Source of the DNA: Gemmatimonadales bacterium
GTDB lineage: Bacteria; Gemmatimonadota; Gemmatimonadetes; Gemmatimonadales; GWC2-71-9
DNA: 64,000 nucleotides
Assembly: GCA_036505055.1 (NCBI GenBank)
Contig: DASXUE010000052.1
Span: forward strand, 1,239 to 65,238
Direction of reading: 5' to 3'
Shown here: piece after piece, positions 92 through 57,609 of the stretch
Layout of the letters: the number at the start of each line of letters is the position of its first letter
Numbering within the stretch: position 1 is the first letter of the stretch
Position numbers and translations under genes: made by a program
The notes under the pieces: generated by a model
The model's database searches: none
The model's input: only the letters and a program-made list of their open reading frames with translations
Told to the model about the DNA's origin: nothing

Positions 92-1345
92 CTAGTAGAG
101 CAAGTACTTGGCCCGCACGGCGCGAAACCGCGCGAGCTCTGCCTCCCAAGCGGTCCAAATCTCCCAGGGTTCCCGGCCCGCGATGATCGCCTGCCGGAGC
201 TCCGGCCCGCCCGCGAGGCGATCGAAGGACTCGTTCCTGAATTGAAAATCCTGGGGATACACGTGCCGTACCCATGCGAGCAGCAAAACCGCGAGCCGCG
301 TCGGATTGTAAGCCTGCCGGTCCGTCACCTTCAGCCCCAGCCCGACGATCTGCGTGTGGTCGTACTTGCCGTCCCCGGGATTCTCGGGCACGACGCGCAC
401 CGGCTGGACGTAGACGCCGATCAGCGGGCTGGCGCTGGCGCGTTTCCAGTTGGCCGGCGGCTCGAGCAGATGGCTGATGACGGCCTGCGGGTCGAGCAGC
501 CACGGCGCCGCGATGAGCTGAAACGCCTTGGACGTCCCGCGACCCACCGACAGGTTCGTGCCCTCGAACAGACACAGCCCCGGATAGTGCATCGCGCTCT
601 CGAGGTCCGGCATGTTGGGGGAAGGCTTCACCCAGGGCAGCCCGGTCTTGTCGAAGAACATGCCCCGTTTCCAACCGGCCGCCGGAACCACGACGAGGTC
701 GGCCCCCAACTTCAGGAGGTCGTTCGCCATTCGGGCCATCTCGCCGAGCGTCATGCCGTGCCGCATGGCGACGGGCAGGAACCCGACGAGGGCGGAGTCG
801 GGGTCCTGCAATTGGAGGTGCACGTTCCCCTGCACCTCCCGCCCGCCGAGGGGATTAGGCCGGTCGAGGACGACCACCCGCTTGCCGGCGCGCGCCGCGT
901 CCCGCATGAGGGACGTCGCGGTCGCGATGTAGGTGTAGTACCGGGCCCCGATGTCCTGCAGGTCGATCAAGAGGACGTCGAGGGAATCGAGCGCGGCGCG
1001 CGCGGCGGCCCTCGATCCGCCATAAAGGCTATAGATTGGAAGGCCGGTGGCGGAGTCGACCGCGTCCGGCAAGCCGGGGCGATCTTCAGTGCCGCGGAAG
1101 CCATGCTCCGGCGAGAACAGGGCCGTTGGCCGCTGGCCATTGGCCAAGAGGACGTCGACGTCGCGACGGCCCTGGCGGTCGATGCCGGTATGGTTGGAGA
1201 GGAGACCGAGCCGTTTGCCGGCGACGAGGTGGACCGAGTCGGCAAGCAGGACTTCGATGCCGGGTCGCACCTGGGCCGGGGCCCCCGCCGGCACCGTGCA
1301 ACCGAGGCAGCAAACCACTACCCACGCGAGACGATGCGCGCGCAT
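92..1345 (-). CDS. namZ: DUF1343/YbbC-NamZ family exo-beta-N-acetylmuramidase-like lipoprotein
   Basis: 417-aa ORF with a lipoprotein signal (MRAHRLAWVVVCCLGC). Family-typical blocks: GLLSNHTGIDRQG, ALFSPEHGFRG, TGLPIYSLYG, DRPNPLGG. Adjacent to a GH3 nagZ-like and an AmiE-like gene, as in the B. subtilis amiE-nagZ-ybbC module. Confidence 0.85.
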   Translation of the reverse strand: MRAHRLAWVVVCCLGCTVPAGAPAQVRPGIEVLLADSVHLVAGKRLGLLSNHTGIDRQGRRDVDVLLANGQRPTALFSPEHGFRGTEDRPGLPDAVDSATGLPIYSLYGGSRAAARAALDSLDVLLIDLQDIGARYYTYIATATSLMRDAARAGKRVVVLDRPNPLGGREVQGNVHLQLQDPDSALVGFLPVAMRHGMTLGEMARMANDLLKLGADLVVVPAAGWKRGMFFDKTGLPWVKPSPNMPDLESAMHYPGLCLFEGTNLSVGRGTSKAFQLIAAPWLLDPQAVISHLLEPPANWKRASASPLIGVYVQPVRVVPENPGDGKYDHTQIVGLGLKVTDRQAYNPTRLAVLLLAWVRHVYPQDFQFRNESFDRLAGGPELRQAIIAGREPWEIWTAWEAELARFRAVRAKYLLY

Positions 1346-3106
1346 AAGCTCCTATTAGTCTCTCTCGTAGTCGGATGTGCCACGGGACAAGCCGCGGGAC
1401 CCAGCGCGGCCGGCCCCGCGCCGCAGCCCGCGTCCACGGACGCCCTGCTCGCTGCGCTGTCGACACGCCAAAAGGTCGGCCAGCTCGTCGTCCCCTGGCT
1501 GGCGGGAAGTTACAGCGCCTTCGACGACTCCGCATTCCAGCTCGCCGTGCGCTGGGTGGACACGCTGCAGGTGGGCGGGATCATCATCTCCGTCGGCTCG
1601 CCGTACGACATCGCGACCAAGCTCAACCTGCTGCAGCGCCGCTCGCGGCTGCCGCTCCTCATCTCGGCCGACCTCGAGTGGGGCGCCGGGATGCGCGTCT
1701 CCGGGGCGACCTCGTTCCCGATGATCATGGCGGCGGGCGCCACGGGGAGCGAGCTGGACGCTTACGCGATCGGACGCGCCGCGGCGATCGAGGGCCGCGC
1801 CGTCGGCATCCATGTGAACTTCGCCCCCGACGCGGACGTCAACAACAACCCGCTGAATCCGATCATCAATACGCGCTCGTTCGGCGAGGACCCGCAGGCG
1901 GTGGCGCGCTTGGTGCGCGCGTACGTCCGCGGCCTCCAAGAGAACGGGATGCTCGCCACCCTCAAGCACTTCCCGGGGCACGGCGACACCGAAATCGACA
2001 CGCACATCGGTTTGCCGACGATCCGCGCCGTCTACGCCCGCCTCGACACGCTGGAGCTGATTCCGTTCCGCGCCGGCATCGCGGCCGGGGCCGACGTGGT
2101 GATGAGCGCGCACATCGCCTTCCCCGCCGTCACCGGGAGCGACGACCCCGGGACCCTCTCTCCGGCGGTGCTGACCGGCCTGCTGCGCGACTCGCTCCGC
2201 TTCCACGGGCTCATCGTCACCGACGCGCTCGATATGGGGGCGATCGTCACGAAGTACGGCGCCGGTGAGGCGACGGTGCGGGCCTTCCTGGCGGGCTCGG
2301 ACCTGCTCCTGATGCCGTCGAACCCCGACTCCGCGATCGCCGCGATGGCCGCCGCCGTCGAGGCCGGGCGCATATCGATGGAGCGGTTGGACGCCTCCGT
2401 GCGCCGCGTGCTCGACATCAAACGGCGCCTCGGTCTGTTCGAGCGTCGCACCGTCCCGCTCGACTCGGTCATCCAGACCGTGGGCGCCAAGCGGTTCCAG
2501 GACCAGGCCGACGACCTCGCCCAGCGCGCGGTCACGCTGGTGCGCGACACCGCCGGCGCCCTGGCCCGGCTCCGCGCCACGCGGGGGCGCGTCGCCATGA
2601 TCGCCTACGGCGACGAGCTGAACAGCTTCGTCGGCCAGCGGATCGCCGGGATGCTGCGCTCGGCCGGCGACACCGTCTCCTTCTTCCGGCTCTGGCCGAT
2701 GTCGGGACCGCTGTCTTACGACTCGGCCCGCGCCGCCATCGCCCAGGCGCCTGTGGTCCTGTTCGCCAGCAACGTCCGGCCCATCTCGGGACGCGGGAAC
2801 ATCGCGCTCCCCGACTCGCTCGCCCGGCTGATCATGGCGACGGATTCCGTGAAGCCGACGGTGCTCCTGTCGCTCGGGAGCCCCTACCTGTTGAACCAGG
2901 CGCCGACGGTGAAGTCGTACTTGATCGCCTGGAGCGGTGTGCGCGCCGCCGAACGGGCTGCCGGCCGAGCGCTGCTCGGCTGGTCGCCGATCCGCGGCAA
3001 GCTGCCGATCCGCATTCCGCCCGGGTATCCCATCGGCCACGGTCTGGTGATGCCCGACTCGACGCTGCCGGCGCCCAAGCCCCCGCCGCCGATGGGCGCA
3101 CGGTGA
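1334..3106 (+). CDS. nagZ: Glycoside hydrolase family 3 beta-N-acetylhexosaminidase (NagZ-like) lipoprotein
   Basis: In-frame ATG at 1334 inside track ORF 242..3106. Lipoprotein signal MRAHKLLLVSLVVGC. GH3 blocks SADLEWGAGMR, FAPDADVNNNP, KHFPGHGDTEIDTH. The upstream 364 codons of the ORF are antisense to namZ and were discarded. Confidence 0.9.
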   Translation: MRAHKLLLVSLVVGCATGQAAGPSAAGPAPQPASTDALLAALSTRQKVGQLVVPWLAGSYSAFDDSAFQLAVRWVDTLQVGGIIISVGSPYDIATKLNLLQRRSRLPLLISADLEWGAGMRVSGATSFPMIMAAGATGSELDAYAIGRAAAIEGRAVGIHVNFAPDADVNNNPLNPIINTRSFGEDPQAVARLVRAYVRGLQENGMLATLKHFPGHGDTEIDTHIGLPTIRAVYARLDTLELIPFRAGIAAGADVVMSAHIAFPAVTGSDDPGTLSPAVLTGLLRDSLRFHGLIVTDALDMGAIVTKYGAGEATVRAFLAGSDLLLMPSNPDSAIAAMAAAVEAGRISMERLDASVRRVLDIKRRLGLFERRTVPLDSVIQTVGAKRFQDQADDLAQRAVTLVRDTAGALARLRATRGRVAMIAYGDELNSFVGQRIAGMLRSAGDTVSFFRLWPMSGPLSYDSARAAIAQAPVVLFASNVRPISGRGNIALPDSLARLIMATDSVKPTVLLSLGSPYLLNQAPTVKSYLIAWSGVRAAERAAGRALLGWSPIRGKLPIRIPPGYPIGHGLVMPDSTLPAPKPPPPMGAR

Positions 3107-18076: not shown

Positions 18077-18658
18077 CTAGGGATGGCGCTCCCGGCGCGC
18101 CAGCGGCGCCTCGATGCGGAAGGCCAGGAACCCTCGCACTTCCGTCGTCGAACCGAAGAAGACGGTCGGCCCGATGACCAACGCATACTGCGCGCCGTCG
18201 CCGGATCCCATGCGCACGCCCGGTAGGACCGACACGGCCATCCAGCGCGCGCCCTGCGGCAGCGGTGAGTTCGCGGTCAAGTAGCCGCTCGCCTCGATGC
18301 TGACGTCGAAGCCGATCTGGGTGAGGTTGCGCTCGTCGCCCATCTCGGCGAGCATGGCGCGCCCGGTCCGCAGCCCGAGCGTGCCCGCTGCGACGAACCC
18401 GCGCATTCCGCCGATGATCGCGCCCTCGTCCACGAACGATCCCAGGCGCACGCCGGCGGCCAGCGCGCCGATCGGCCCGCGGCGCAGACGCCGCACGAGC
18501 CCCAGCTCCCCGCCCTCGATCTGCCAGCCGGCGCCCAGCGTCGCGACGAACCCGGCGCTGATCGCGGGCCCGGTCCGCGGCGTCTCGGGCGTTTGCGCCG
18601 CGAGCGGTGTAGACAACATCCCCAGCAGGGCCAACATTGAGGCCATGAATCGACGCAC
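18077..18658 (-). CDS. Small secreted beta-barrel-like hypothetical protein
   Basis: GTG at 18658 is preceded by GAGGAGG with 6-nt spacing and gives the signal peptide MRRFMASMLALLGMLSTPLAAQ. Alternating Gly/aromatic strands. An ATG at 18646 is an alternative start. Confidence 0.6.
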   Translation of the reverse strand: MRRFMASMLALLGMLSTPLAAQTPETPRTGPAISAGFVATLGAGWQIEGGELGLVRRLRRGPIGALAAGVRLGSFVDEGAIIGGMRGFVAAGTLGLRTGRAMLAEMGDERNLTQIGFDVSIEASGYLTANSPLPQGARWMAVSVLPGVRMGSGDGAQYALVIGPTVFFGSTTEVRGFLAFRIEAPLARRERHP

Positions 18659-35912: not shown

Positions 35913-38243
35913 TCACCGAGCGGCGGCAAGCGCCCCATCGAACAAATGGAGGATGCGCCGGTACTCGTCCGTCCAGCTGTCGTTCCGCCGGAACCCGTGC
36001 GGCTCCACCGGGTAGACCGCCGCCTCCCAGTTGTCCTTGCCGAGCTCGATCAAGCGTTGAATGAGGCGCGCGGTGTCCTGAAAGTGCACGTTGTCGTCGA
36101 CCATGCCATGGCAGATCAGCAGGCGGCCTTTGAGCCCCTCCGCAAAGTAGATCGGCGATGATTGCCGGTACGCGATCGTGTCGCTCTGAGGCTCGTTCAG
36201 GATCCGCGCGGTGTACGGGTGGTTGTAGTGCGCCCAGTCGGTTACGGGCCGGAGCGCGGCGCCGGCGGCGAAGACGCCGGGTTTGGTGAACAGCGCCATG
36301 AGCGTAATGAATCCGCCGTAGCTGCCACCGTAGATGCCGATGCGCGTGGAATCGATGCCCAGGTTGGCAACCAACCACCTCGCACCCGACACCTGATCCT
36401 CGAGATCGAGGCCACCCATGTGTCGATAGATCGCCGTCCGCCAGGCCCGTCCCAACCCCGCGCTCCCGCGGTAATCGAGGTCGAGGACGGCGTAGCCTTT
36501 CGACGCGAGCAAGTGATGGAACATGTACTCGCGGTAATACCACGACCACCACCGGTGCACGTTCTGCAGGTAGCCCGCCCCGTGCACGAAAATCACGGCC
36601 GCGCCGGTTGCCCCGGTTCCCCTCGGCCGATAGAGCCGCGCCGGCACCTGCGCGCCGTTCCCCCCCCCCGTCGGAATCATGACGATCTCCGGCTTGACCC
36701 ACTCGTAACTCCGGAACTCGGGGCTCGTGCTCTCCGTGACCTTTTGCATGGCCGCGCCGGGGCGCGCCGCCTGGAGATACAGCTCGGGTGGGTGATTCGC
36801 CGTCGAGTGCAGCACCGCAAGGGTGCGCCCGTCGGGCGACACGACCACGTCCTGCCGCCCTTCACCCGCGGTCAGCTGGGTGCGCCGGCCGGTGGCGATG
36901 TCGAGCGCGTAAAAGTGCACCTGACCGAAGTCGCCCTCGTTCGTATGCAGGTACAGGGTCCGGCCGTCGGGGGCGAGGTCCACCTGCTGCACTTCCCAGG
37001 CGCCGCTCGTAAGCGCCCGCGCTGCCCCGCCGCCCGCGGGCACGGTGTACACGTGCGCGTAGCCGGTCTGCTCGCTTCCGTAGTAGACCGTCTCACTCGC
37101 GGGAATCCACCCCGCCGTGTTGCCGAGCGGGCCGTCGAGCCATGCGTCGTCGTGCAGATGCGCGACTTCGCGCCGCGCCAGGGACGGAAGGTCCACCACG
37201 ACGAGCCAGGCGTCCTGATAGTCGGTGCTCGTGATCCGAACCAGTGCGTGTCGCCCCGTCGCCGAGAACCCGACGCCAGCCGCGTCCGTTTCCCGTTTCC
37301 CGCGAGCGTCAGGGAGTCCTTTAGGGATTCCCGAGTCCGTTTGTACCCACGTCACCTTCCCCGTCGCGACCTCGATCAGGGCGGCTTTGAGCCGCGCCTG
37401 CGCGTCGCCGACCTTCGTCCGAATCTGCTGCGTCTCGACGTACCCGGACTGCGTCACCCACACCGGCATTTGGACGGCGCGGCCCTCCGTCGAGTCGCCG
37501 CGCGCCCGCTCGGTGACCGTGACCAGCACGAAGCGGCCGTCAGGGGAAACCTGCAGCCGGCTTGGCGTCTGGCGCTCGGCGAGGTAGAGCGGCTTGACGG
37601 TGGCCACGGTGTCGGTGTCGGCGCGTAGCCGTTCGTCGGCTACTTGACGGCGAATGAAATCGAAGAGCTCGCGTTGCTGATCGCGCAAGAACTTCTTTTC
37701 GCCGGCGGGCTCCGTCGCCACGCGTGGCGCGGGGCCGCGGCGAATGTCGGTCAGTTGCGACACCGCTCCGGCGAAATCGAGCGCCCAGCAATTCTGGTCA
37801 CGCGTAAAAAAGATTCTGCGCCCGTCGGCCGACCACGCTGGCGCGGTTTCTGCACCGGGCGTCGATGTCAGGCGGCGCTTGGTGCCGTCCCGCTCGACCA
37901 GCCACAGGTCGCCTTTCAGCACTACGACGAGGCGGCGCCGGTCGGGCGACCACGCGCCCGTCGCCAGGGGAATCGTGTCGACGGCGTTGCGTGCAAGCCG
38001 CTGGATTTGTCGCGCGTCCGCCACAGCGACGCGGTAGTCCTGATCCAGCGTGTCGGCACCCGGCTGACGCCAGCGGAGGTACACATAGTGTCCGAGCGCA
38101 TCGAATTGCACATTGAACGGAGCGGTGCCTACGAGGTCGGGCCCGCGCATGATGTTCTCGACCGTCAACGCGAACCCCTGGGCGGCGGCGCCGACCGGGA
38201 TCGAGGCGAGCACGACGGTACACAGCGTAATGCAACGACGCAT
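35913..38243 (-). CDS. S9 family serine peptidase (DPP-IV/prolyl oligopeptidase-like)
   Basis: ATG at 38243 is preceded by AAGGAG with 7-nt spacing. Signal peptide MRRCITLCTVVLASIPVGAAAQ. Beta-propeller region, then catalytic GIYGGSYGG, with D and H in LICHGMVDDNV..EPHGF. Confidence 0.85.
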   Translation of the reverse strand: MRRCITLCTVVLASIPVGAAAQGFALTVENIMRGPDLVGTAPFNVQFDALGHYVYLRWRQPGADTLDQDYRVAVADARQIQRLARNAVDTIPLATGAWSPDRRRLVVVLKGDLWLVERDGTKRRLTSTPGAETAPAWSADGRRIFFTRDQNCWALDFAGAVSQLTDIRRGPAPRVATEPAGEKKFLRDQQRELFDFIRRQVADERLRADTDTVATVKPLYLAERQTPSRLQVSPDGRFVLVTVTERARGDSTEGRAVQMPVWVTQSGYVETQQIRTKVGDAQARLKAALIEVATGKVTWVQTDSGIPKGLPDARGKRETDAAGVGFSATGRHALVRITSTDYQDAWLVVVDLPSLARREVAHLHDDAWLDGPLGNTAGWIPASETVYYGSEQTGYAHVYTVPAGGGAARALTSGAWEVQQVDLAPDGRTLYLHTNEGDFGQVHFYALDIATGRRTQLTAGEGRQDVVVSPDGRTLAVLHSTANHPPELYLQAARPGAAMQKVTESTSPEFRSYEWVKPEIVMIPTGGGNGAQVPARLYRPRGTGATGAAVIFVHGAGYLQNVHRWWSWYYREYMFHHLLASKGYAVLDLDYRGSAGLGRAWRTAIYRHMGGLDLEDQVSGARWLVANLGIDSTRIGIYGGSYGGFITLMALFTKPGVFAAGAALRPVTDWAHYNHPYTARILNEPQSDTIAYRQSSPIYFAEGLKGRLLICHGMVDDNVHFQDTARLIQRLIELGKDNWEAAVYPVEPHGFRRNDSWTDEYRRILHLFDGALAAAR
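36660..36669 (-). repeat. G10 homopolymer (C10 on + strand) inside the S9 peptidase gene
   Basis: Direct reading: ttCCCCCCCCCCg. It encodes the GGG of IPTGGGNGA, upstream of the catalytic domain. Confidence 0.9.
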
Positions 38244-39069
38244 AGAGCTGCTCCTTGCGGATCGAGGGGCGGCGACGTTTGCGGCGCTAATCTGCGCCGC
38301 GCTGACGGCGTGCACCAGCGAGGCGCGACCGCTGCGGTTGGGTACGACGTACACCGTCGAGCAATCGGGTGCGCTGGCGGTGCTCGACTCGCTCACTCCC
38401 CCCGCACCGGTGACGGCGATCGTCGGGCCTTCGGGCCAGATTCTGCGCTCGGCGGCTGCCGGCGACCTCGATGTCGTCCTGACGCACGCCCCTACGCTCG
38501 AGGACCGGCTGCTCGTCGCGCCTGGACTGGCGGCGCTGCAATGCCCGTTCGTCTCGAGCCGGTTCGCGATCGTCGGCCCGCCGGCGGATCCGGCCCGCGT
38601 GGCGGGCGCCACCACCGCGGTGGACGCGTTGCGCCGCATCGCGGCGGCGCAGGCCACATTCGTCTCCCGAGGTGACTCATCCGGCACACACGTGAAAGAG
38701 GTGGCGCTGTGGGCCGCGGCGGGCGTAGCCCTCACCGGACGGGCGTGGTACGTGCAATCGGGCGTCGACCAGGCCGCCACCCTGCACCTCGCGGACGAGC
38801 GGCAAGGCTACGCGCTGGCGGACCTCCCGACGTTCACGCGCATCGGCGGCGTGAACCTGCGCGTCCTGTTCGCAGACGACAGCACGCTGGTGAATCCGTA
38901 CACGCTGTACGTCGTGCAAGCCCGCACCCCGCATCCCGCGGCGCGGGCGTTCGGTCTCTGGGCGCCGGGGCAGTGGCGCGCGCGGCTGCTGGCGCTGCGC
39001 CTGCCCGACGGCACCGCGGCGTTCGCGTCGCGGGACGGCGACTGCCGAACCCCGGCGGCAAGACCGTAG
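38230..39069 (+). CDS. TupA/PBP-like periplasmic oxyanion (tungstate/molybdate-type) binding lipoprotein
   Basis: ATG at 38230. Lipobox LTAC. LRLGTTYTVEQSGAL and FVSRGDSSGTHVKEVALW blocks recall tungstate-binding proteins. No cognate permease or ATPase is nearby. Confidence 0.65.
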   Translation: MQRRIELLLADRGAATFAALICAALTACTSEARPLRLGTTYTVEQSGALAVLDSLTPPAPVTAIVGPSGQILRSAAAGDLDVVLTHAPTLEDRLLVAPGLAALQCPFVSSRFAIVGPPADPARVAGATTAVDALRRIAAAQATFVSRGDSSGTHVKEVALWAAAGVALTGRAWYVQSGVDQAATLHLADERQGYALADLPTFTRIGGVNLRVLFADDSTLVNPYTLYVVQARTPHPAARAFGLWAPGQWRARLLALRLPDGTAAFASRDGDCRTPAARP

Positions 39070-39078
39070 GAGGCCCCG

Positions 39079-39435
39079 ATGCCATTCAGTGACCTTGAAT
39101 CGAAGGTGGGCTTGACGCTGCTGCGGCGGGGCGTGCCGGTCATGGGCGAGCGTGAGGCGCGCCTGCTCGACGCGGTGGCGCGCGTGCAGTCGATCAAGGA
39201 CGCGGCGCGAGAGACGGGGATCAGTTACCGCACGGCGTGGGGCGCCATCCAGCTGATGGAGCGGGCGTGGGGCCGGCCGGTGGTCGAGTCCCGCGCCGGC
39301 GGTCCCGGCGGCGGCGCGACCACGTTGACCGCGGAGTGCCGGGAGCTGCTGCGCCTGTACCAGGACGTGGAGCGGCGGCTCGACGAGCATGTCCAGCACG
39401 CCTTGCACGCCGCCGAGGGGTCGCCGGCGGACTAG
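39079..39435 (+). CDS. ModE N-terminal-domain-like winged-helix regulator
   Basis: 118 aa. AARETGISYRTAWGAIQLME HTH block typical of the ModE/LysR-like N-domain. No Mop domains. Confidence 0.7.
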   Translation: MPFSDLESKVGLTLLRRGVPVMGEREARLLDAVARVQSIKDAARETGISYRTAWGAIQLMERAWGRPVVESRAGGPGGGATTLTAECRELLRLYQDVERRLDEHVQHALHAAEGSPAD

Positions 39436-39839
39436 CGAACGATGTCGAGCGCGTAGCTCGCGAGCACCAGCGGCGTCCGCAGCTGGTAGTTCGCCTGCGC
39501 GACCCCCTGAATCGTCCCGTCGTACCGCGCCACGGCATTCACGTTCTCCACGCCGATCGTCAGCACCACCGCGTCCTGCGTCAGCTGGCCGACGAGCGCG
39601 AACCTCGTGCTCGTCCCGCCGAGCGTTTGCTGGAAGAGACGCATCCCCGCTCCCGCTGTAGCGCTCGTCAGGGCCGCGGGACCGGTGATGGTGAACACCA
39701 TCGCCGAATCGGCGCCCGAGTTGGGCGTCGTCAGCTTCACGCTGAGGACGCCGGGGACCGGGCCCACGGGGTCTCTGCCGCAGCTCAGACCAACAGCGGC
39801 CAGGAGGGCGAGCGCCACGACGCCGACGGTGGGCTTCAT
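39432..39839 (-). CDS. Small lipoprotein, function unknown
   Basis: ATG at 39839 is in an ATGA overlap with the M6 protease stop. MKPTVGVVALALLAAVGLSC lipobox. Confidence 0.65.
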   Translation of the reverse strand: MKPTVGVVALALLAAVGLSCGRDPVGPVPGVLSVKLTTPNSGADSAMVFTITGPAALTSATAGAGMRLFQQTLGGTSTRFALVGQLTQDAVVLTIGVENVNAVARYDGTIQGVAQANYQLRTPLVLASYALDIVR

Positions 39840-42409
39840 GGCCGCGCTCCCTTCGGTCGGGCGATTCGCGACATCGCGTTCGCGCTGAGCGGCGCGCCCG
39901 TCCCCTTCACCCAGGCGAGGAAGTCGCCGATGTCGAAGCCGCCGTTGTTGTTCCCGAGGAAGTCGAGATAGCGCCGTTGGTCGGCGGTCAGCGGCACCGT
40001 GGGACCGAGCAGATGATTCACCACATCGGCCGTCGCGAGCGTGGGTGCCGAGACCGAGAATGTGAACGTCCGCGTCTGGGTCTGCGCACCCGATGTCAGC
40101 AGCACGTCGTACGAAAAACTCCCCGTGTCGTGCGGAAATCCCGACACGATCCCCGTGGACGCCGCCAGGGTCAGTCCTTGCGGCAGGGCGCCGCCTGTCA
40201 CGGTCCAAGTGTAGGTCCCGGTGCCACCGCTGGCGCGCAGCGTGTCGCCGTACGAGGCGCCCATCACGCCCGCGGGGCGCGCGGCGCCCGAGCTGACCGC
40301 CAGCGCCGTCGCAAATGTCGCGACCACCGTATACGGCCGACCCATCGGCAGGGTGACGACGAGGTTGGTGGTCGTCGTGTCGCCGCTCCAGTTCCCGAAG
40401 AACCCGCCGGAGTCGGGCGTCGCCGTGAGCTGAACGGCGCTGCCGTCGGCGATGAACTGGCCGGCGAGGTTGACGGGAGGGTTGGACGCGATCGTCCCGC
40501 CACCGACCTTCGTCGCGACCAGCTTGAACTCGCGGTCCAAGGTGGCGGTGAATGTCCCTCCCGACAGGCTCCCGGTGATCGAATGCGTGCGGGCCCCGAA
40601 GTCCGACCAGGAGACAAACCGCCAGCGCGTGCGAGCGTCCCCCGACAGCTGCGTATCGGCGACGCTGACCGTGTGCGAGGAGCCGTCATCCAGCAGGTCG
40701 TGGAAGATGTTGACATTGACGTCGTCCAACACGACGACTGCATTCGTGTCGCTGCCGCTGATCACGGTGAGGTTACCGAACCGCAGCCGGAACGCCATCG
40801 CACCGCCCGGGATGAGCTGCCGAATCGAGTCGACCGCAAGACCCATGAAGCCGCCGTCGAGGTTGTTCCGGGCGGCGGGGCTCGTCCCGAACGCGTACGT
40901 GGTGTTCCCGCTCTTGCCCGGGTACAGATCGCCGGCGTCGCCCCGGTTGCAGCCGCCGGCGCCGCACCACAGCTGCCGCAGGCGGTCCGCCTCCTCGACG
41001 ACGAGGCCGTGAATCGGCCCGAAGTTGACCGCGTTGCCGTTGCGAAACCCGTTGTCCGTGATCTGCGTCGAATCCGCGTGCCAGATGAGGAGGCCGCCCC
41101 CGCACGACGCCGGCAGACTGCTGCGCTGGCAATGGAGCCGAATCATCGCCGTATCGGCCTGGGACGCCTGCCTGTTCTCGAGCAACACGTACTCGCCCCG
41201 CGTGTTCGTGCCCTGCACGCGCACGTAGAAGGCGGTGTCTGACACGGCGGCGGCGCCGAAGGTGTAGGTCCCGGTCGCCGAGAGCAGGCGGAGGGACACC
41301 CACCCCAGCTCGCTGAGCGACCACGCCTCCATGCGGGACGGGCTCGGCGGGCTGGTGTAGTTGCCCGAGCCCATGAGCCCCCACTCGCCGATGCCCTCGG
41401 TCGAACCCTGCGTGTCGTACAGATCCGGGAGTCCCAGCGCGTGGCCAAACTCGTGCGCCGCGGTACCGATCGGCATGATCTTCGTGTCGTCGCACGGGGA
41501 CGTGCCGGGTGCGGTACCGCCCAACGCGCTGGACGCGAAGTAGTCGCTGATGCGGACATTACCGAAGCCGGACTTGGCGGAGACGTCGTTCGTGACGTAG
41601 TCCTGAAAGTTCGTCTGGTTGGCGTTCGCCAGGACGTAGCGGTGCGACCAGATGTGATTGTTCGCCGAACCGGCGGGGCCGCACGCGCCGTCTTTCGTGG
41701 CGTGCGCGAACATGATCATGTCCACGTAGCCGTCGTCGTCCCCGGAATTCGGGATCAAGTCCGGCCCGTCGTTGTCGAACTGTGTGAAGGTCACACCCGA
41801 TGGGCCCGTGTCCACTCGGGCCAGCGCTTGGCGAAACCCATTCTGCATCCGCCTGATGGCGTCGCTCGAGAACAGGCCGTTACAGTTCGTCCCCCCGAAC
41901 GGATTGCCGCTACAGGTCCCCGGCGTGCCGGTGTACGTCGCCTCGGCGCTGTCGAGCCGCACCCAACGCGTGATTCTGCCCGTCATGTGAAACAGCCCGT
42001 TCGACATCTGCTCGTAGAACGTCCGCAACGTGTACGGGTTGCCCCCCGGGGGCGACGTGGAAAACAGCACGCTGGTGTACTGTGCCGTGTCGCGCATGAA
42101 CTGGAGGGAGTCGATCCCCTGATAGCTGAGGAGAACGACGGGCACCTGGAGCGTCCCGGTCACCGCGCTGGCCGTCGGGAGGGGCCCGCGGAGCAGCAAC
42201 GGCGCGTTCAGCGTGCCCATCCGGCCCTGCGCCAGCAGCTGCCGCCGGAGATCGCTAACCCGCGTAGCCCGGACGCGCCACACGCCGTCCTTCCGGAAAT
42301 CGAAGCCGGGGATCTCCCACCGGGGATGGAGCTGGCTCTGGGCGTGGGCGGGTGCCGGCACGAGCGCGACGACGGCGAGCGCCGCGACCAGCGCAACCAA
42401 ACCTCTCAC
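39836..42409 (-). CDS. M6 (immune inhibitor A-like) secreted metalloprotease with C-terminal Ig-like repeats
   Basis: GTG at 42409 is preceded by GGAGGA with 8-nt spacing and gives the signal peptide M-RGLVALVAALAVVALVPAPAHA. Zinc site AAHEFGHALGLPDLYD. The track start (TTG at 42448) is possible. Confidence 0.8.
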   Translation of the reverse strand: MRGLVALVAALAVVALVPAPAHAQSQLHPRWEIPGFDFRKDGVWRVRATRVSDLRRQLLAQGRMGTLNAPLLLRGPLPTASAVTGTLQVPVVLLSYQGIDSLQFMRDTAQYTSVLFSTSPPGGNPYTLRTFYEQMSNGLFHMTGRITRWVRLDSAEATYTGTPGTCSGNPFGGTNCNGLFSSDAIRRMQNGFRQALARVDTGPSGVTFTQFDNDGPDLIPNSGDDDGYVDMIMFAHATKDGACGPAGSANNHIWSHRYVLANANQTNFQDYVTNDVSAKSGFGNVRISDYFASSALGGTAPGTSPCDDTKIMPIGTAAHEFGHALGLPDLYDTQGSTEGIGEWGLMGSGNYTSPPSPSRMEAWSLSELGWVSLRLLSATGTYTFGAAAVSDTAFYVRVQGTNTRGEYVLLENRQASQADTAMIRLHCQRSSLPASCGGGLLIWHADSTQITDNGFRNGNAVNFGPIHGLVVEEADRLRQLWCGAGGCNRGDAGDLYPGKSGNTTYAFGTSPAARNNLDGGFMGLAVDSIRQLIPGGAMAFRLRFGNLTVISGSDTNAVVVLDDVNVNIFHDLLDDGSSHTVSVADTQLSGDARTRWRFVSWSDFGARTHSITGSLSGGTFTATLDREFKLVATKVGGGTIASNPPVNLAGQFIADGSAVQLTATPDSGGFFGNWSGDTTTTNLVVTLPMGRPYTVVATFATALAVSSGAARPAGVMGASYGDTLRASGGTGTYTWTVTGGALPQGLTLAASTGIVSGFPHDTGSFSYDVLLTSGAQTQTRTFTFSVSAPTLATADVVNHLLGPTVPLTADQRRYLDFLGNNNGGFDIGDFLAWVKGTGAPLSANAMSRIARPKGARP

Positions 42410-50372: not shown

Positions 50373-51374
50373 TCAATCCTCCGTCAACAGGGGTTCGAAC
50401 CGCCGGGTCTCAAGCGAACGATAGGCCGCGAGCACGACGGCGAGGTCGCGACGCGCGACGGCGAGGGACATCTCGGGCTGGCCCCGCTCGCGCACACAAG
50501 CGAGGAAATGACGCAGCATCGCGCGGTAGCCCATGAGATCGCGGACGCCGGGGAAACGTAACCGCGTGCGCCGCCCCGTGACCAGCGCAAACAGCCCGTT
50601 GCTTTCGAAGGTGATGGTGCCCTCGGTCCCATAGATTTTCGACAGCCCCAATCCAGCAAGGCGATTCGTGACGCTCCAGGCGTGCAGCAGCTTGCCGACC
50701 GTCCCGTTCTCGAACCGGACCAGTACCTCCAGGCCGTCTTCGAACGGCGCGACCGGCGCGCGACCCGTCTCGGGGCGGGCGGCGCACACCTCGCGCACCG
50801 GGCCGCCCAGGTGGCAGAGATAGTTCACCCAGTGGACGCCCCCCTCGAGCAGCGCGCCGCCGCCCATCATCGCGGGATCGGCGCGCCAGCCGGTGGGGCG
50901 CTGGCGCCCGGCCCGGTTCAGCTCGAGGAACAGCGGCTCGCCGACATCCCCCGCGTCGAGATGGCTCCGCAGGACTCGGGCGGCGGGCTTGAAGTGGTAG
51001 TTCTCCGCGACCATGCAGATCGTCTTGGCCCGCCTCACGGCCTCTTCGATCGCGGCCACTTCCGTCAACGTGCGGGCGACGGGCTTCTCGATCAGCGTGG
51101 CCTTGCCGTGCCCGGCGGCGAGGCTCGTGTGCTCCACGTGAAAGGCGTGCGGGGTGCAGATCACGACCGCATCCACCCGTGGGTCGGCGCACGCTTCCTC
51201 GTAACTCCCGAAGGCGCCGATGCCCCCGTAGCGGCGCTGGTACTGCTCCGCCTTTTCCCGCGAGCGGCTGGCGTAGAGGAGCTGCACCCCGCCGAGCGAC
51301 CGCGCCACGCGGCTGTGCACGCCGGCGATCCGCCCGCACCCCAGCATGCACAGGCGGACGGGGGACGCGGTCAC
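50373..51374 (-). CDS. Gfo/Idh/MocA-family NAD(P)-dependent oxidoreductase
   Basis: GTGA overlap with the GMC stop. Rossmann motif LGCGRIAGVH. EKP motif (LIEKPVA). Confidence 0.85.
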   Translation of the reverse strand: MTASPVRLCMLGCGRIAGVHSRVARSLGGVQLLYASRSREKAEQYQRRYGGIGAFGSYEEACADPRVDAVVICTPHAFHVEHTSLAAGHGKATLIEKPVARTLTEVAAIEEAVRRAKTICMVAENYHFKPAARVLRSHLDAGDVGEPLFLELNRAGRQRPTGWRADPAMMGGGALLEGGVHWVNYLCHLGGPVREVCAARPETGRAPVAPFEDGLEVLVRFENGTVGKLLHAWSVTNRLAGLGLSKIYGTEGTITFESNGLFALVTGRRTRLRFPGVRDLMGYRAMLRHFLACVRERGQPEMSLAVARRDLAVVLAAYRSLETRRFEPLLTED

Positions 51375-52930
51375 GCGTCTCCCTCCCCCTCCACGACGAT
51401 GTGACGCCCCACCCGCAAGGCGTTCGCGGCAATCGTGAGACTCGGGTTGACTCCGCCCGAGCTCGGAAAGAAGCTCGCGTCGACCACGTAGAGGTTCGGA
51501 ACCCCGAAGAAGCGGCACCACGGGTCGAGGACGGCGCGCGCCGGATCGTCGCCGAAGCGGCACGTTCCCAGCGCGTGCGAGAAGGTGTTGATGGGCTTGC
51601 GCACCCGAATCAGCGCCCCGGCGCGACGCAGGATCCGGGCGGCTTCCCGATGGAGCGCCCCGCGCGCCTGCCGGTCGCGCCGGGAATAACGGTGGAACAC
51701 CCGCGGGATCGGCGCGCCGTAGCGATCGGTCTTGGCGGGATCGATCACCACGCGGTTCTCGCGGTCGGGCAGGTCCTGCGCGATGCACAGGAGGAACACC
51801 TGGCGGTCGGCGGTCTTGGCGCCGATCGTGCCGATCGGAAACCCGCCTTCGGCGGCGATGTATTCCGGCGGGGGCACCTGGAGCGCTTGAATGATCCCCC
51901 AGGGCCCGGCAGGCCCGCTGCGGTTGCGGCCGCCGAAGTAGAAGTCGGCGATGGCAACTTGTTTGTGGAACACCCGCTCGGGATTCGTCGGGGCTCCGAA
52001 AATGCCGATCACGATCCCGGAGCAATGGCGCATGAGACTGCGGCCGATCCACGCGCCGTTCGGCTCCACCGTCCCGAGCCCGGAGGCCAGGAGCAGCGCC
52101 GCGGATGGAATCGCACCCGCGCTCACGACGCAGACGCGGCACGGGACGCGGAATCTCCGTCCCGTGCCGGCGTCGACGCAATCCACGCCCGCCACCCGCT
52201 TCCCCTGGCGCACGAGCCGCAGCGCGATCGTGCTGTGGAGCACGGTCGCACCCCCGGAGATCGCCGCGGGAAGCACCGTGACCGACAGATCGTTCTTCGC
52301 GCCGATCTTGCAGGGGAACAGGTCGCACGTAAGGCACTGCACGCAGGACCGCCGCCCGTCGGTCGACGCGAAGTTGATCGCCAATGGAATCGGAAACGGA
52401 TGGAGCCCGAGCGTCGTCGCGCTCTCCGCGATGCGGCGTGCGGGCGCGGAAAACGGCGGCGGCGCCCCGGCGTATGCGCCCGACCGGCGCGGCTCGGTGG
52501 GATCGATTCCCGCCACGCCCACCACACCCAGCAGGCGTTCGGCCTCGTCGTAGAAGGGCGCCAGCTCGTCGTAGCCGATGGGCCAGTCGACGGCGTCGGA
52601 GCAAACCCGCGGGTACCGCTCGCGCAGATGAAAGTCCCCTTCACGCAGCCGGAACGATGCCGCCCCGTAAAAGACGGACTTGCCGCCCACCGCCTCGTCG
52701 GGATAGAAGTGCGTGCGGCCCAGGCCGTAGCGCGGTGTCTCGAAGGGCGATGCGCTGCGGTACTTGCGATCGATGAGGATGGCCTGCGGATCCCAGGCCG
52801 AGTCGTCGCGCTCCACCCAGCGGCCGCGCTCGATCAGCAGCACGCGCAGGCCTGCGCGCACGGCCGCCAGCGCGACCATGCTGCCCCCGAACCCCGTCCC
52901 CACCACAACCAAATCCCACTCCTGCGTCAT
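51371..52930 (-). CDS. GMC-family FAD-dependent oxidoreductase
   Basis: AAGGAGG immediately upstream of the ATG at 52930. DLVVVGTGFGGS FAD motif. C-terminal HALGTCRFG..VVDASFFPSSGGVNPSLT. Confidence 0.85.
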   Translation of the reverse strand: MTQEWDLVVVGTGFGGSMVALAAVRAGLRVLLIERGRWVERDDSAWDPQAILIDRKYRSASPFETPRYGLGRTHFYPDEAVGGKSVFYGAASFRLREGDFHLRERYPRVCSDAVDWPIGYDELAPFYDEAERLLGVVGVAGIDPTEPRRSGAYAGAPPPFSAPARRIAESATTLGLHPFPIPLAINFASTDGRRSCVQCLTCDLFPCKIGAKNDLSVTVLPAAISGGATVLHSTIALRLVRQGKRVAGVDCVDAGTGRRFRVPCRVCVVSAGAIPSAALLLASGLGTVEPNGAWIGRSLMRHCSGIVIGIFGAPTNPERVFHKQVAIADFYFGGRNRSGPAGPWGIIQALQVPPPEYIAAEGGFPIGTIGAKTADRQVFLLCIAQDLPDRENRVVIDPAKTDRYGAPIPRVFHRYSRRDRQARGALHREAARILRRAGALIRVRKPINTFSHALGTCRFGDDPARAVLDPWCRFFGVPNLYVVDASFFPSSGGVNPSLTIAANALRVGRHIVVEGEGDA

Positions 52931-52962
52931 GGCCTCCTTGCTACCGGGTTCATGGGGAAAGG

Positions 52963-54858
52963 TCAAGACCGCACGCCTTCGCGAAACCGGCGGGCCTGAC
53001 CCGGGGTGATCATCTCGGCGAGGAGGATCTCCCGCACAATGGGCGCGCCGAAGACGTAGCCCCGCGCATCGGCGGCCAGCCACCGGTCCCACTCGAGCTC
53101 GTCGAGTGCGGCGTCGACGGTCCCGCCATCCAAACCCGTGGCGCCCGAAAGCCACGTGGGCTCCACGCGATCGCCCACCGCGGCCGCTGCGGCGAGGACC
53201 TGCTGAGCGGGGGCCGAGAGCCCGCGGAAGCGCAGGCACACCGCGCCGATCACCGCGGGCGGCAGATCGCCCGGCAGCGAATCGACCACGGTGCGCTTGG
53301 GTGTCGGCCAAGCCGGCGCGTCGGGGGCCAATTTGAACCCCGCGGCGATCGCCTCGACCATCGCCGCGGCAAGGAGGGGAATCCCTGCCGTGTCTCGCTC
53401 GATCCGCCGGGCCAGGCGTGCGGCGTCGTCGCTCCCGTACCGCGGCAGGGCCCAGGCGACCAGCGTTTGCAGGGCCGCCGCGTCCCAGCGCTCCAGCCGC
53501 ACGACCGCACCGTCGAGATCGCGCCCGATGCGGGCGCGTAGGGCGTCCTGCCGTTCGTCGCCCGGTGCTGCGAGCGCGCTGCCGAGCACGAGGAGCACGC
53601 GACGGCGTCCCATGTCGCGCGAGAACGCCGGAAGCGCGGCGCTGGTCTCGTCGTCCAGCCACTGCGCGTCATCGAGCGCGACGAGAAGCGGGCGCTCGTC
53701 GCTCGCCGCCGCGGCCGCCGCCGCGAGCGCCTCCGGCACGGGCAGCGGCGCAGCCCGGGCGGCGTAGCGCGCGCCGACCTCAGGATCGAGCACGGCCAGG
53801 GCGGCGAGCGCGCCGGGCGGGGCGCCGGCGAGCCCGGCGGAATCGGTGAGGCCTGCCACGAGCAGTCCCGCAACCCCGCTCCACGGGCGCGTGCGATCGG
53901 CCGGCACCGCGCGTGCCCACGCGACACTCGCGTCCTCCAATCGCGCGCGCCCGACTAGCTCATCCACGAGACGGGTCTTCCCTGCACCGGGCTCGCCTTC
54001 CACCAGGACGACCTGACCGCGTCCCTCGCGCGCGCGGCCCCAAGCGGCGAGCAGCGTCGCGAGCGCCGCCTCACGGCCGACGAGGGGTAGCCGTGCCCTG
54101 GGCGCAGGCGCAACAGGGATGCGCCGCCCGACGCGCACATCACGGATCCGTTCGATCATGCGGGTCGTCTCGAGAGCGGGCTCGGCATCGAGCCGCTCCG
54201 CCAGCGCGCGGGTGAGGGCCGCCGCCACGGCGAGGGCGCCCGCGCGGTCGCCAGCGAGGGCGAGGGCGCGCATCGCGGCCCGAGCCGCCGGCTCGTGCGC
54301 CGGATCGATCGCGAGCGCGCGTTGGGCGGCCTCGGCGGCGGCGGTCAGATTCCCCGCGCCGACGTGGCTCTCGGCGCCGCTCACCAGGACGTCGATGGTC
54401 CGGGCCCGCCACGCGGCCCGCTCCGCCGCGAGCCAGAGCTCGAAGTCGCCCGCGTCGGGGACGGCGAGGCCCTCGAGAAACTCCCCTTGCGCGAGCGCGG
54501 CGGCCCCGATCCAGTCGCCGCGCTCCTGGCGCGCAACCAGCTCGTCACAGTCCAGCACGAGTCCGTCCGCGACGAGGCGCACCTGATCGACGTCCACCAC
54601 GACGCGCTCCTCACCCAGCGTGCGCCGGAGGGCCCCCAAGGCCTCGCTCAACGAGTGGCGGGCCTGCTTCTCGTCGCGATCGCCCCACAACATCCCCACG
54701 AGGTGCTCCCGGGTCCGGCCCCGGCGGGGGCTGCGCGCCAGGTACACGAGCAGGGCCACGTGCTTGCGCCAGAGAAGCTCCGCGGGCGCCGGGGCGCCGT
54801 CGATCGTGATCGCGACCGGGCCGAGCACTCGGCAATGGACTAGGCGCGTCGATGGCAC
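52963..54858 (-). CDS. SARP-type regulator: OmpR-like wHTH + BTAD + P-loop (AAA_16/STAND-like) ATPase
   Basis: GTG at 54858 aligns with the paralog's N-terminus. [13 protein letters not shown] wHTH, BTAD helices, Walker [11 protein letters not shown], Walker [14 protein letters not shown]. Confidence 0.8.
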
Positions 54859-54891: not shown

Positions 54892-57609
54892 ATGAATCCC
54901 GCGCCGCTCGAGGACGTCCAGCGCGCCGTCGGCGACCGCTACGAGGTGCTCGATCTCGCGGGATCGGGCGGGATGGGCGTGGTGTACCGCGCACGCCACC
55001 GCCAGCTCGGACACGTCGTGGCCGTCAAGATCCTCCCGCCCGAGGTCGCGGCCAGCGGCATGCGCCAAGAGCGCTTCCACCGGGAGGCCTCACTCGCCGC
55101 GCAGCTGCAGCACCCCCACCTCGTGCCGGTCTACGAATTCGATGTGCAGCGCGGGCTCGCCTTCCTGATCATGCCGTTCGTCCGAGGCGTCACGCTCGAA
55201 ACGCTGCTCGCCGAGCGCCGTCTCGACACCGACGCGGTGCTGCGGCTGCTGCGCGAGGTGGGCTCCGCACTCGACTTCCTGCACCGGAGCAGCGTCGTGC
55301 ATCGGGACGTCAAACCCTCGAATATCATGATCGAGGAAGACGCCGGCCGCGCCCTGCTCACCGATTTCGGGCTGGCGCGGCCCGAGCGACCCGTCGACGG
55401 ATCGCTGACGGCGCCGGGCACGGCGCTCGGTACGCCAGATTACATGGCGCCCGAGCAGGCCGCCGGAGACGAGACCGTCGACGGCCGCGCCGACTTGTAC
55501 GCCCTCGCGCTCGTCGCCTTCGAGGCGCTCACCGGCACGCTCCCCGCCAGTAGCGCCGACCGTGCGACGCTCGCGCGGGGCGTCCGCAGCGCGCACCCCG
55601 AAGTCGGGGGCCTGCTGGCCGCCGCGCTGGTCGCGCCGCTGGCCCCGCGCGCGGCGGATCGGCCGCCCACGGCGGCCGCGTGGCTGGCGTTGCTCGAGCG
55701 GGGCGCGCGCGAGCGGCGCACGCGGATCACTCAGGTCGCCATCGCCTTCGCGGGGCTCGCCGCCATCGTGCTGACCATCGCACTGCTGCGCCGGCCCACG
55801 GCGGCGCCCGACGCCGTCGTCGCCGTCATGCCCTTCGCCGTGCTGGGGCAATCGCCCTACCCACCCGCGCAGCTCCCCGACTACTTCCTGTCGCGCTTCA
55901 GCGCCGTCCAGGGCCTGCGCGACGTCGTGTCGTTCGGGCGCGTGCTCGCCGAGACAGGGGTGGAGCCGATCTCTGCCGGCGACGCCGAGGCCGCCGCCCA
56001 GCGCCTCGGGGCCGCGTACTATGTCCAGGCGAGCCTGGCGTTCACGGGCGACTCGGTCACGTTGACCGCGACCCTCTACGAGGTCGGCCGGCGCACGCCG
56101 CGTGTCACCGCCACGGGCGCGGGTGCGGCCGGCGCGATGTCGGCGGTCATGGACGCGGTCTGGGGACGGATCCTCGGAGCCGGATTCGCGCCCAATCCCT
56201 ACGAGACGATGCCCAGCGGCAAAGACGCCATCGCCGCGTACATCAACGCCGACGCCGACTTCCGTCGGGGCGCCTACGACAGAGCGGTGGCGGGCTACGA
56301 CCGCGTGATCGCCGCCGACACGGCGTTCGCCCTGGCGCGGTTTCGCCGCGCGCTGGTCGTCGCCCAGACAGACCCGACGGGCGAGCAGGTGCGGGCCGCG
56401 TTGCGAGGCGCCATCCAACACCAATCAGGGCTCTCACCCGCCGACAGCCTGATGCTCGAGGGTTACGCCCTGCTGCTCGACCGCGGGGACGGCCGCGCGG
56501 CGCTGGAGCGGTTCCGGGCGGCGGTCGACGCGGCGCCGGGCCAGCCCCTGCCCTGGTTCGTGCTGGGCGAGTTCCACGTGCATTTCGGCGTGCTGTTCGA
56601 CCAGCCGGTGGACGAAGCGTGGACGGCGTTCAACCGGGTGCGCGACCTGGTCCCGCAGTTCGCCCCCGCCATCGCACACCTGGTCACGCTGGCCTACCTG
56701 CGCGGGGACAAGGCGTACGCGAAACGGCTGATGGACGAATACCGCCGCCTCGATTCGACGTCCGTGGTGGCGGCGGTGATCGGCGTGGCCGACACCATCC
56801 TCTTCGGCGCCACCCCGGCGCGGCTGCGGGTGCTGCGCACGCTCGACCAACGCAGCTTCGAGATCCTCGCCTTCCTGGCGTTCCAGGCGGCCGTCGCGGG
56901 GACCGACGCTGACCGCCGCGGGCCCGGGCGCCGCGTCCTCGCGGCGCTCGCGCGCCGGGCCGCGAGCGAGTCGGAGCGGGTCCGCGCGCTGCGCATGGGC
57001 GTCGCCGCCGACCTGCGGTACGGCTGGGCCGACAGCGCGCGCGCCCTGTTGCGCCGGGCCACGTCGCCGGCCGCGGCCCGCGAGCGCGACGCGTGGATCG
57101 TGCTGGCCGGCGTCGCCGGATTGGCACCCCTGGGCACACCGGGCACCTCCGCGGCGCGCCTCGCCACCCACGTCCGTAACGAGGCGGATCCCGACGTGGT
57201 CGAGCTATGGCTGCTCGCGGCGCTGCCGGCGGGCCCCGATCAGGCGCGCGCGGCGGAACGGCTGCGCGCCGCGGCGGCGGGTGGGGCGCCGCTCGCCGCC
57301 GCCTTGGCGGCGAGCCTGGAGGCGCGCCGCATGCTCACCGTGGGCGATTCGGCGGGAGCGATCGCCCGCTGGACCGCCGCCACAGCGCGCTACGACGTGC
57401 TGAGCGTCCCCTCCGGACTGCTCTCGTCCCTGTGGCCGCAGCGTCTGACGCTGGCGCGCGCGGCCGTCCTGGCGGGCGACAGCGCGAGCGCGGCACGCGC
57501 CTGCGCGACGCTCAGCGCACCGATCGGCTACGCCGACCAGGCTGCGTTCGCCGAGGTCGAGCCGCTGTGCGCACCGTGGCGTGGCGTCACCCCCTCCCCT
57601 CGTCGCTAG
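54892..57609 (+). CDS. Membrane Ser/Thr protein kinase with large extracytoplasmic helical-repeat (TPR-like) domain
   Basis: Hanks kinase motifs [29 protein letters not shown]. One TM ([21 protein letters not shown]), then about 600 aa rich in Ala/Leu/Arg. Confidence 0.85.

Follow-up and report, generated by a model that had tools for sequence, protein, structure and literature searches.

Divergent genes for a predicted S9 peptidase and a putative lipoprotein that abut start to start in a soil Gemmatimonadales bacterium: a probable 14-bp overlap whose starts slide among relatives

Divergent gene overlaps are those in which two genes on opposite strands share a few bases at their 5' ends. In a survey of 58 genomes, Lillo and Krakauer (2007) counted 331 divergent against 12,737 co-directional overlaps, a strong under-representation that was attributed to the need for placing regulatory signals; 59% of the divergent overlaps were in phase 123:213, the commonest (PMC2174442). 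One named origin of overlaps, in the PairWise Neighbours database, is the elongation of a 5' end into the neighbouring gene and the adoption of a new start codon there (PMC2716372). Here we describe a junction of this type in a 64,000-nucleotide stretch of DNA (the window, G000:C52:1239-65238) from a soil Gemmatimonadales bacterium, where a minus-strand gene for an S9 family serine peptidase faces a plus-strand gene for a PBP_like_2 lipoprotein. Start-to-start overlaps of divergent genes are commonly put down to faulty annotation. Divergent transcription units with mutually antisense 5' untranslated regions (UTRs) are known, their coding regions being normally separate. As in such units, the two mRNAs must here overlap at their 5' ends, there being no spacer; unlike in them, the start codons themselves are predicted to overlap.

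The S9/lipoprotein overlap belongs to a rare, already known kind of gene arrangement. It resembles the described divergent overlaps in that the genes lie on opposite strands and share few bases at their 5' ends, and the 14-bp and 2-bp forms seen here are in phase 123:213 (PMC2174442). The available text of the two surveys discusses neither single junctions nor their conservation (PMC2174442; PMC2716372), whereas here several junctions are inherited genus-wide and at least four longer overlaps (11–15 bp) involve signal peptides. The co-directional ATGA and TGATG overlaps, of 4 and 1 bp, are likewise very short, include a start codon and are evolutionarily conserved, but in them the stop of one gene is coupled to the start of the next on a shared mRNA (PMC10666635); in the present case the two facing start codons belong to different mRNAs, which makes ribosome hand-over impossible. 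The leaderless genes of Deinococcus-Thermus carry a −10 box beside the start (PMC12340547), a feature paralleled in this genome by an excess of TANNNT boxes before starts and by a TAGATT at a gene pair on contig C24. Unlike those genes, neither the peptidase nor the lipoprotein gene has such a box, and the peptidase, having a Shine–Dalgarno (SD) sequence, must be leadered. A non-exhaustive literature search found no paper that describes particular junctions as conserved throughout a genus, or starts that slide at a single junction.

The host genome (G000) was represented by an assembly of 1.86 Mb in 59 contigs, 59% complete and with 69.7% G+C. By its domain content, the minus-strand gene is a peptidase of family S9 (prolyl oligopeptidase or DPP IV type). 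Its translation matched Peptidase_S9 (PF00326; E = 1.3e-47, 162.5 bits, cut-off 22.6) and DPPIV_N (PF00930; E = 3.1e-26, 92.4 bits, cut-off 22), contained GGSYGG and began with MRRCITLCTVVLASIPVGAAAQG, with MRRCITLCTVVLASIPVGAAAQ as the predicted signal peptide. The plus-strand gene matched PBP_like_2 (PF12849; E = 1.1e-22, 81.5 bits, cut-off 27), and its N-terminus, MQRRIELLLADRGAATFAALICAALTAC, closes in a putative lipobox L-T-A-C at residues 25–28. Bacterial lipoproteins, the substrates of signal peptidase II, carry a lipobox of the pattern [LVI][ASTVI][GAS]C behind a hydrophobic stretch and a positively charged n-region. Compared by eye with this pattern, the protein has L-T-A-C after the hydrophobic AATFAALICAA and a positively charged MQRR. 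The first-pass annotation had named it a TupA-like binding lipoprotein. The lipobox and the PBP_like_2 domain bear this out in part, but the NCBIfam TupA model (NF041772) gave 67.2 bits against an equivalog cut-off of 400, and no tupB/tupC-like transporter genes adjoin the gene; judged from these matches, the name is valid at superfamily level only. Judged from domain matches, N-termini and orthologs, both genes are real, divergent and for exported proteins.

The sequence confirmed the two facing ATG codons, the AAGGAG at 7-nucleotide (nt) spacing before the peptidase and the 14-bp overlap that had been reported, and the translations confirmed the residues encoded by the shared bases on each strand (Table 1). 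From the coordinates 38230 and 38243, the overlap is in phase 123:213, with third codon positions opposed. The codon list contained no in-frame ATG, GTG or TTG between 38230 and the lipobox cysteine codon, in agreement with the earlier statement that no downstream start would keep the lipobox. The remaining in-frame canonical starts on the plus strand are all upstream (TTG 38113, GTG 38125, ATG 38149/38152) and would enlarge the overlap. If a canonical start is assumed, none further downstream than 38230 would keep the lipobox, and the overlap is therefore at least 14 bp.

Table 1. Features of the S9 peptidase/lipoprotein junction and of two further divergent pairs, in window coordinates.
Feature	Position	Strand	Basis
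S9 family serine peptidase gene, 776 aa	35913..38243	-	Pfam matches, orthologs
Peptidase start codon ATG (CAT on the plus strand)	38241..38243	-	Sequence
Peptidase SD AAGGAG (plus strand CTCCTT)	38251..38256	-	7 nt (38250..38244) before the ATG
PBP_like_2 lipoprotein gene, 279 aa, putative lipobox LTAC	38230..39069	+	Pfam, orthologs
14-bp head-to-head overlap ATGCAACGACGCAT; M-Q-R-R on plus, M-R-R-C on minus	38230..38243	both	Sequence
ATA codon, Ile5 of the lipoprotein; homologous to the plus-strand ATG of G003, G054 and G006	38242..38244	+	Alignment
Conserved block GCGCTAATCTGCGC, signal-peptide codons A-L-I-C-A	38284..38297	both	Alignment of six genomes
Lipobox cysteine codon, Cys28	38311..38313	+	Translation; conserved in orthologs
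ModE N-terminal-domain-like helix-turn-helix (HTH) protein, 118 aa, second gene of the plus-strand unit	39079..39435	+	Profile matches
Pair 1: 12-bp perfect palindrome ATGCGCGCGCAT, MRAH on both strands	1334..1345	both	Sequence
Pair 1: GH3 NagZ-like gene, lipoprotein-type signal	1334..3106	+	Begins MRAH
Pair 1: 417-aa exported protein gene, lipoprotein-type signal	92..1345	-	Begins MRAH
Pair 2: 14-bp overlap ATGAATCGACGCAC	18645(+)/18658(-)	both	Sequence
Pair 2: Tat-signal glycosidase-like gene, MNRRTFVLL	start 18645	+	Translation
Pair 2: small exported protein gene, GTG 18658, MRRFMASMLALL	18077-18658	-	GGAGG 6 nt upstream

An ortholog of the peptidase was found in 6 of the 50 genus genomes (E ≤ 1e-100), the five others being 78–83% identical, and in all six it divergently adjoins the lipoprotein gene with next to no spacer. 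The junction states, like those of the other loci reported below, were read manually from aligned sequences. An overlap of 14 bp (−14) was present in G000 only, whereas the relatives showed −2, with the starts sharing CATG (G003, G054 and G006), +4 (G055, two GTG codons with 4 nt between them) and +17 (G061). The homologous peptidase start is ATG in G003, G054 and G006 and GTG in G055 and G061, with AGGAG 7 nt before it in each. The starts thus slide at this locus, and the 14-bp form, specific to G000, does not represent a fixed solution. The alignment of the signal peptides sets I-E-L-L-L-A-D-R-G of G000 against M-G-L-L-L-R-N-R-G of G003, so that the ATG of the relatives corresponds to ATA 38242 in G000; the lipobox region TGCACCAGCGA was conserved in all six genomes. 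This alignment suggests that the plus-strand start most likely moved four codons upstream in G000, the ATG of the CATG having become ATA and an in-frame ATG at 38230, formed by the Cys4-Ile5 codons of the peptidase, having taken over.

We consider it probable, on the strength of these comparisons, that two real divergent genes for exported proteins abut without intergenic DNA and that the lipoprotein starts at ATG 38230. As read from the sequence, the peptidase starts at ATG 38243 on a leadered mRNA, with its SD written in the Leu-Leu codons of its partner. The lipoprotein start, most likely ATG 38230, would have been supplied where the CATG start seen in three of the five relatives became ATA. 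The extension may have been tolerated because it falls in the loosely constrained n-region of the signal peptide and because third positions are opposed, the Arg-Arg codons of the peptidase reading Arg-Arg on the other strand. As there is no spacer, the promoter and 5' UTR of each gene must sit within the first codons of the other. The −10 region of the peptidase promoter, or an operator, would be the invariant GCGCTAATCTGCGC block, and the 5' ends of the two mRNAs would be mutually antisense. For the lipoprotein we propose SD-independent initiation on a leadered mRNA from a promoter inside the peptidase gene, since this gene has neither an SD nor a −10 box next to its start.

Several points weigh against this reading. 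The relatives compared are kin, and counts across them, those for the six S9-adjacent genomes and all conservation counts below included, are not independent samples. The order of events, CATG first and the 14-bp form derived, is a matter of parsimony, the protein tree being unresolved, with good support for 1 of its 14 inner branches. Our gene caller, which scored codon log-odds against the five other frames together with SD and start-codon weights, is home-made, crude and unvalidated, and its first passes misplaced the starts of pair 1 (758/877) and pair 2 (18637). A sigma-70 consensus scan (−35/−10, 16–18 nt spacing) of both strands of 37900–38600 gave no sites, the scan being strict and the phylum consensus not established, and the proposed −10, CAGATT, is without the first T of the consensus. 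Ahead of the plus-strand start 38230 there is neither an SD nor a TANNNT at leaderless distance. A search for RNA sequencing runs that cover 36500–40000 listed none. Moreover, a near-cognate start at ATA 38242 or CTG 38248 would cut the overlap to 2 bp or to none, and the JGI call on an identical sequence starts the lipoprotein at 38149 (306 aa).

The near-cognate variant, in which the genes abut without the 14-bp overlap and ATG 38230 is incidental, appears unlikely. ATA stands at the site of the ATG of three relatives and CTG at the site of the GTG of G055, one partner in each of two junctions from another family of the order is also without a canonical start where one is expected (CTG in L131, ATT in L127), and the bare sequence ahead of 38230 would fit it as well. 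However, ATA and CTG are very weak starts in the bacteria that have been studied, and the in-frame ATG 12–18 nt upstream would be used if it were on the mRNA. Starting at ATG 38230 also gives the signal peptide the positive n-region MQRR, whereas IELLLADRG alone has a net charge of −1.

The lipoprotein query had a match in 28 of 41 related genomes, with orthologs at 59–75% identity in 14 loci. Only the orthologs with an S9 neighbour are without an intergenic region; the 12 others (L003-L014) keep ordinary upstream regions and signals such as MTRRTLALILVSAAQTAC. This difference leaves a very small place for a reading in which the lipoprotein gene is silent or decaying, having lost its regulatory region to the abutting peptidase gene, so that the overlap is functionless. 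The normal upstream regions carry a conserved motif some 30–60 nt before the start and, in 4 of the 5 scanned, a divergent tRNA gene at a distance of about 190 nt, both of which are missing from the six S9-adjacent genomes. Decay is hard to reconcile with a lipoprotein gene that is intact, full length and 64–75% identical in 5 of the 6 genomes (in the other one a contig end truncates the gene), with a conserved lipobox and mature N-terminus, and with an intact downstream ModE-like gene (HTH_1, E = 7.5e-10; TIGR00637, 85 bits against a cut-off of 98.5). The remaining alternative, a start further upstream at ATG 38149/38152 and an overlap of 92–95 bp, is highly improbable: the frame is open from 38089 and both JGI and the first choice of our own caller placed the start there (38149), but the lipobox cysteine would become residue 55, further in than a lipoprotein signal peptide allows. 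The signals of all other orthologs have 13–28 residues, and the added codons run antisense to conserved codons of the peptidase, which accounts for the open and conserved frame.

As a separate observation, the upstream motif of the other orthologs resembles CTGGAACGATTCCGCCGCTCGGGAATACCGCA, is non-coding and occurs in most of the 12 (L004-L013). A sigma-54 reading of it was rejected by eye, the GG-GC spacing being one base short of the consensus. Seven loci with the lipoprotein gene and its surroundings were scanned against Rfam (E-value threshold 0.1), which returned tRNA genes only (upstream of four orthologs), with no riboswitch match at the G000 locus or in the relatives and none for the CTGGAACGATTCCGCCGCTCGGGAATACCGCA-type motif.

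Some signals lie inside the codons of the partner gene. On the plus strand, the peptidase SD forms the Leu codons CTG-CTC-CTT of the lipoprotein signal peptide. The hexamer GCTCCT was invariant in all six genomes while the flanking codons and the spacer length varied, which upholds the reported equivalence of CTCCT and AGGAG at this locus; across G000, AGGAG-type motifs were enriched 5–9 nt upstream of starts. Viewed from the peptidase, a second conserved block lies 10–31 nt beyond the SD. This block, GCGCTAAT(C/G)TGCGC, was invariant in the six genomes except for a single base in G061. Its Leu codon CTA (38287-38289), which is rare (1% of G000 Leu codons), is retained in 6/6 genomes. Together, the two elements suggest regulatory signals written into the signal-peptide codons of the partner. 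We propose the block, GCGCTAATCTGCGC in G000, as a candidate −10 region of the peptidase (CAGATT, minus strand, 38294..38289) or an operator. With the −10 element in this position, the SD would always be on the peptidase transcript. The sequence GCGCTAATCTGCGC has one exact copy in G000, plus one with a single mismatch, and a repeated operator was rejected because of the single exact copy.

A terminator consensus scan of 37900–38600 gave no hits. No TANNNT ending 6–10 nt before the start was found at 38230 or at 38243, and a leaderless reading of the pair was rejected, there being no box at the right distance and the peptidase having its AAGGAG. An SD-like motif is absent from 687 of the 1598 called G000 genes, so a lipoprotein start without an SD is not unusual here. 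A published survey table gives a low value, 22, for class Gemmatimonadetes, which we take as percent SD use (PMC10783764). Among 523 genes of G000, TANNNT ending 6–10 nt before the start was observed 85 times against about 25 expected by our own estimate. From this excess before operon-first genes, roughly a tenth of those genes may form a leaderless subpopulation.

Overlaps of 2 and 14 bp oppose third codon positions, and wobble freedom is therefore kept on each strand. In the 14-bp form the CG of a plus-strand CGN Arg codon is also the CG of a minus-strand CGN codon, so that Arg-Arg mirrors Arg-Arg; the first-pass annotation had pointed to this Arg-Arg pattern on both strands, and it does follow from the geometry. 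For Sec, lipoprotein and Tat signals, Arg-Arg is well suited to the n-region. Likewise, Leu-Leu written as CTC-CTN is AGGAG on the opposite strand, and CTC and CTG together make up 89% of the Leu codons in G000. All this comes from the code itself and from the codon usage of a G+C-rich genome, and it makes such junctions cheap rather than designed.

The two other overlapping pairs that had been reported in the window, at 1334/1345 and 18645/18658, do exist and are conserved in relatives. For pair 1, in which we take the 417-aa minus-strand product to be NamZ-like, a match was found in 46 of the 50 genus genomes, and the best 30 loci were examined. The palindrome ATGCGCGCGCAT was identical in 22 of these 30, G000 counted; a 15-bp variant, ATGAAGCGCGCGCAT, was read manually in two more, and in the other six the genes stood 166 nt or about 1.2 kb apart. 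The NagZ-like and NamZ-like genes were still divergent neighbours in another family of the order, where manual reading gave several loci with overlaps of 9, 12 or 15 bp (GTGAATCAT, GTGACGCAT, ATGAGTCAT and GTGAGCGTTCAC) and others with spacers of 200–280 nt. Conserved promoter-like blocks within 150 nt on either side of pair 1 were considered and rejected, as the coded residues account for their conservation.

Two further observations concern this gene pair. In loci L114-L122 and L128 (genus g3, family f3), the 200–280 nt spacer holds two to four GAGTTGCGAG(A/T)-type repeats, which look like an operator-site array in lineages without overlapping starts. In L131 (G066) and L127 (G083), CTG and ATT, respectively, stand where the NamZ-like/NagZ-like relatives have the overlapping start of one partner. 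Near-cognate initiation, a recent loss of the start or an error of assembly could account for this.

For pair 2, the module [AG]TG-NNN-CGN-CGC-AC together with the SD was kept in 23/23 loci, which are all the genus genomes with a match, and AGGAG stands 7 nt before the minus-strand GTG across them. The minus-strand start is a less certain judgement among GTG 18658, ATG 18646 and ATG 18637, because dual coding forces much of the conservation. Overall, the suggestion that such pairs recur beyond chance is supported by the inheritance of the junctions across relatives, and their explanation as an artefact of mis-called starts was not upheld, both genes of each pair being real and the junctions conserved in related genomes.

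To place these pairs in the context of the genome, divergent pairs in G000 were surveyed with our own caller, both starts being picked jointly, with an overlap of ≤30 nt allowed and some of them by eye. Among 181 divergent pairs the median spacer was 93 nt, and about 10 pairs overlapped or abutted within 2 nt. Nine of these overlap (−18 twice, −14, −12, −11, −6 and −2 three times) and one lies at +2; the caller scored pair 2 as +7. A genome-wide count of divergent overlaps had been proposed as a check. Four of the overlapping or abutting calls (C8, C4, C48 and C56) are dubious, and the caller is crude. With the same caveat, the median spacer and the small share of abutting pairs do not support the idea of genome compaction. 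For comparison, 387 of 1290 co-directional neighbours overlapped by exactly 4 bp in the calls of the same program.

Four longer-overlap junctions (11–15 bp) were judged credible, each with at least one signal peptide. The two CATG pairs examined further encode cytoplasmic enzymes. At the AroH-like/ThiE-like junction, CATG was present in 30/30 loci. At the PduO-like/flavoprotein junction it was present in 6/30, these loci coming from the seven genomes closest to G000 (G000, G003, G006, G054, G055, G061 and G062), the holders of both features. In the G000 copy (G000:C24:55750-55800, L080/L084) and five relatives, codon 3 of the plus-strand gene is Arg CGA, where the other 24 loci have Lys AAG, and in the six CATG loci this Lys-to-Arg change creates a TAGATT or TAAATT that ends 6 nt before the minus-strand ATG. 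Since this −10-like box lies at the TANNNT-enriched distance, some CATG partners may be leaderless.

The conservation counts take in two genomes flagged as unpublished, G008 and G017. Without them, the counts became 21/28 for the pair 1 palindrome, 22/22 for the pair 2 module, 28/28 and 6/28 for CATG at the AroH-like/ThiE-like and PduO-like junctions, respectively, and 13 of the 14 loci for the lipoprotein orthologs; the result for the S9/lipoprotein junction is independent of both genomes. Elsewhere in the window, a 3.9-kb stretch within 50373–54800 holds three minus-strand genes, which by open reading frame and motif encode a Gfo/Idh/MocA-like oxidoreductase, a GMC-type oxidoreductase and a BTAD/AfsR-like regulator. 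The 5' end of the regulator gene nears a plus-strand Ser/Thr kinase gene at 54892, and the two may form a tight divergent junction.

The annotation records differ in their treatment of these starts. In the NCBI record of the contig, the lipoprotein is present at 279 aa and the peptidase at 776 aa, so that the S9/lipoprotein overlap is annotated there. For the minus-strand genes of pairs 1 and 2, the same record gives 400 aa (not 417) and 189 aa (ATG 18646), whereas JGI gives 417 and 186 aa, and the lipoprotein has 306 aa in JGI. The starts thus conflict in 3 of the 6 genes examined (window 92-1345, 18077-18658 and 38149-39069). To our knowledge, some gene finders (Prodigal) do not permit divergent start-to-start overlaps. 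The N-termini of overlapping divergent pairs, and hence their signal peptides, are easily truncated in annotation.

With several start overlaps inherited across dozens of genomes, these bacteria offer a natural system for three questions. The first is one of packing, that is, how the same 20–40 bases accommodate a promoter, a ribosome-binding site and a signal peptide for each of two genes; the second is one of start migration, for which the states −14, −2, +4 and +17 are available at one locus; and the third is the treatment of such divergent pairs by gene callers. A bolder proposal, which we regard as doubtful, is that the start modules (the ATGCGCGCGCAT palindrome, the 14-bp start-NNN-CGN-CGC-A(C/T) and the CATG junctions) are regulatory devices and more than tolerated compaction. 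If this were true, the invariance of MRAH on both strands in 22/30 loci beside freely varying signal-peptide residues, and the retention of a Leu codon of 1% usage in all six S9-adjacent genomes, would be owed to selection at the level of the DNA or RNA. Two exported proteins would then be encoded on opposite strands of a single short, partly palindromic segment in which each gene carries the ribosome-binding site and promoter elements of the other. By occluding a promoter or by pairing of the antisense 5' ends, one partner, when transcribed or translated, would exclude the other or set its level.

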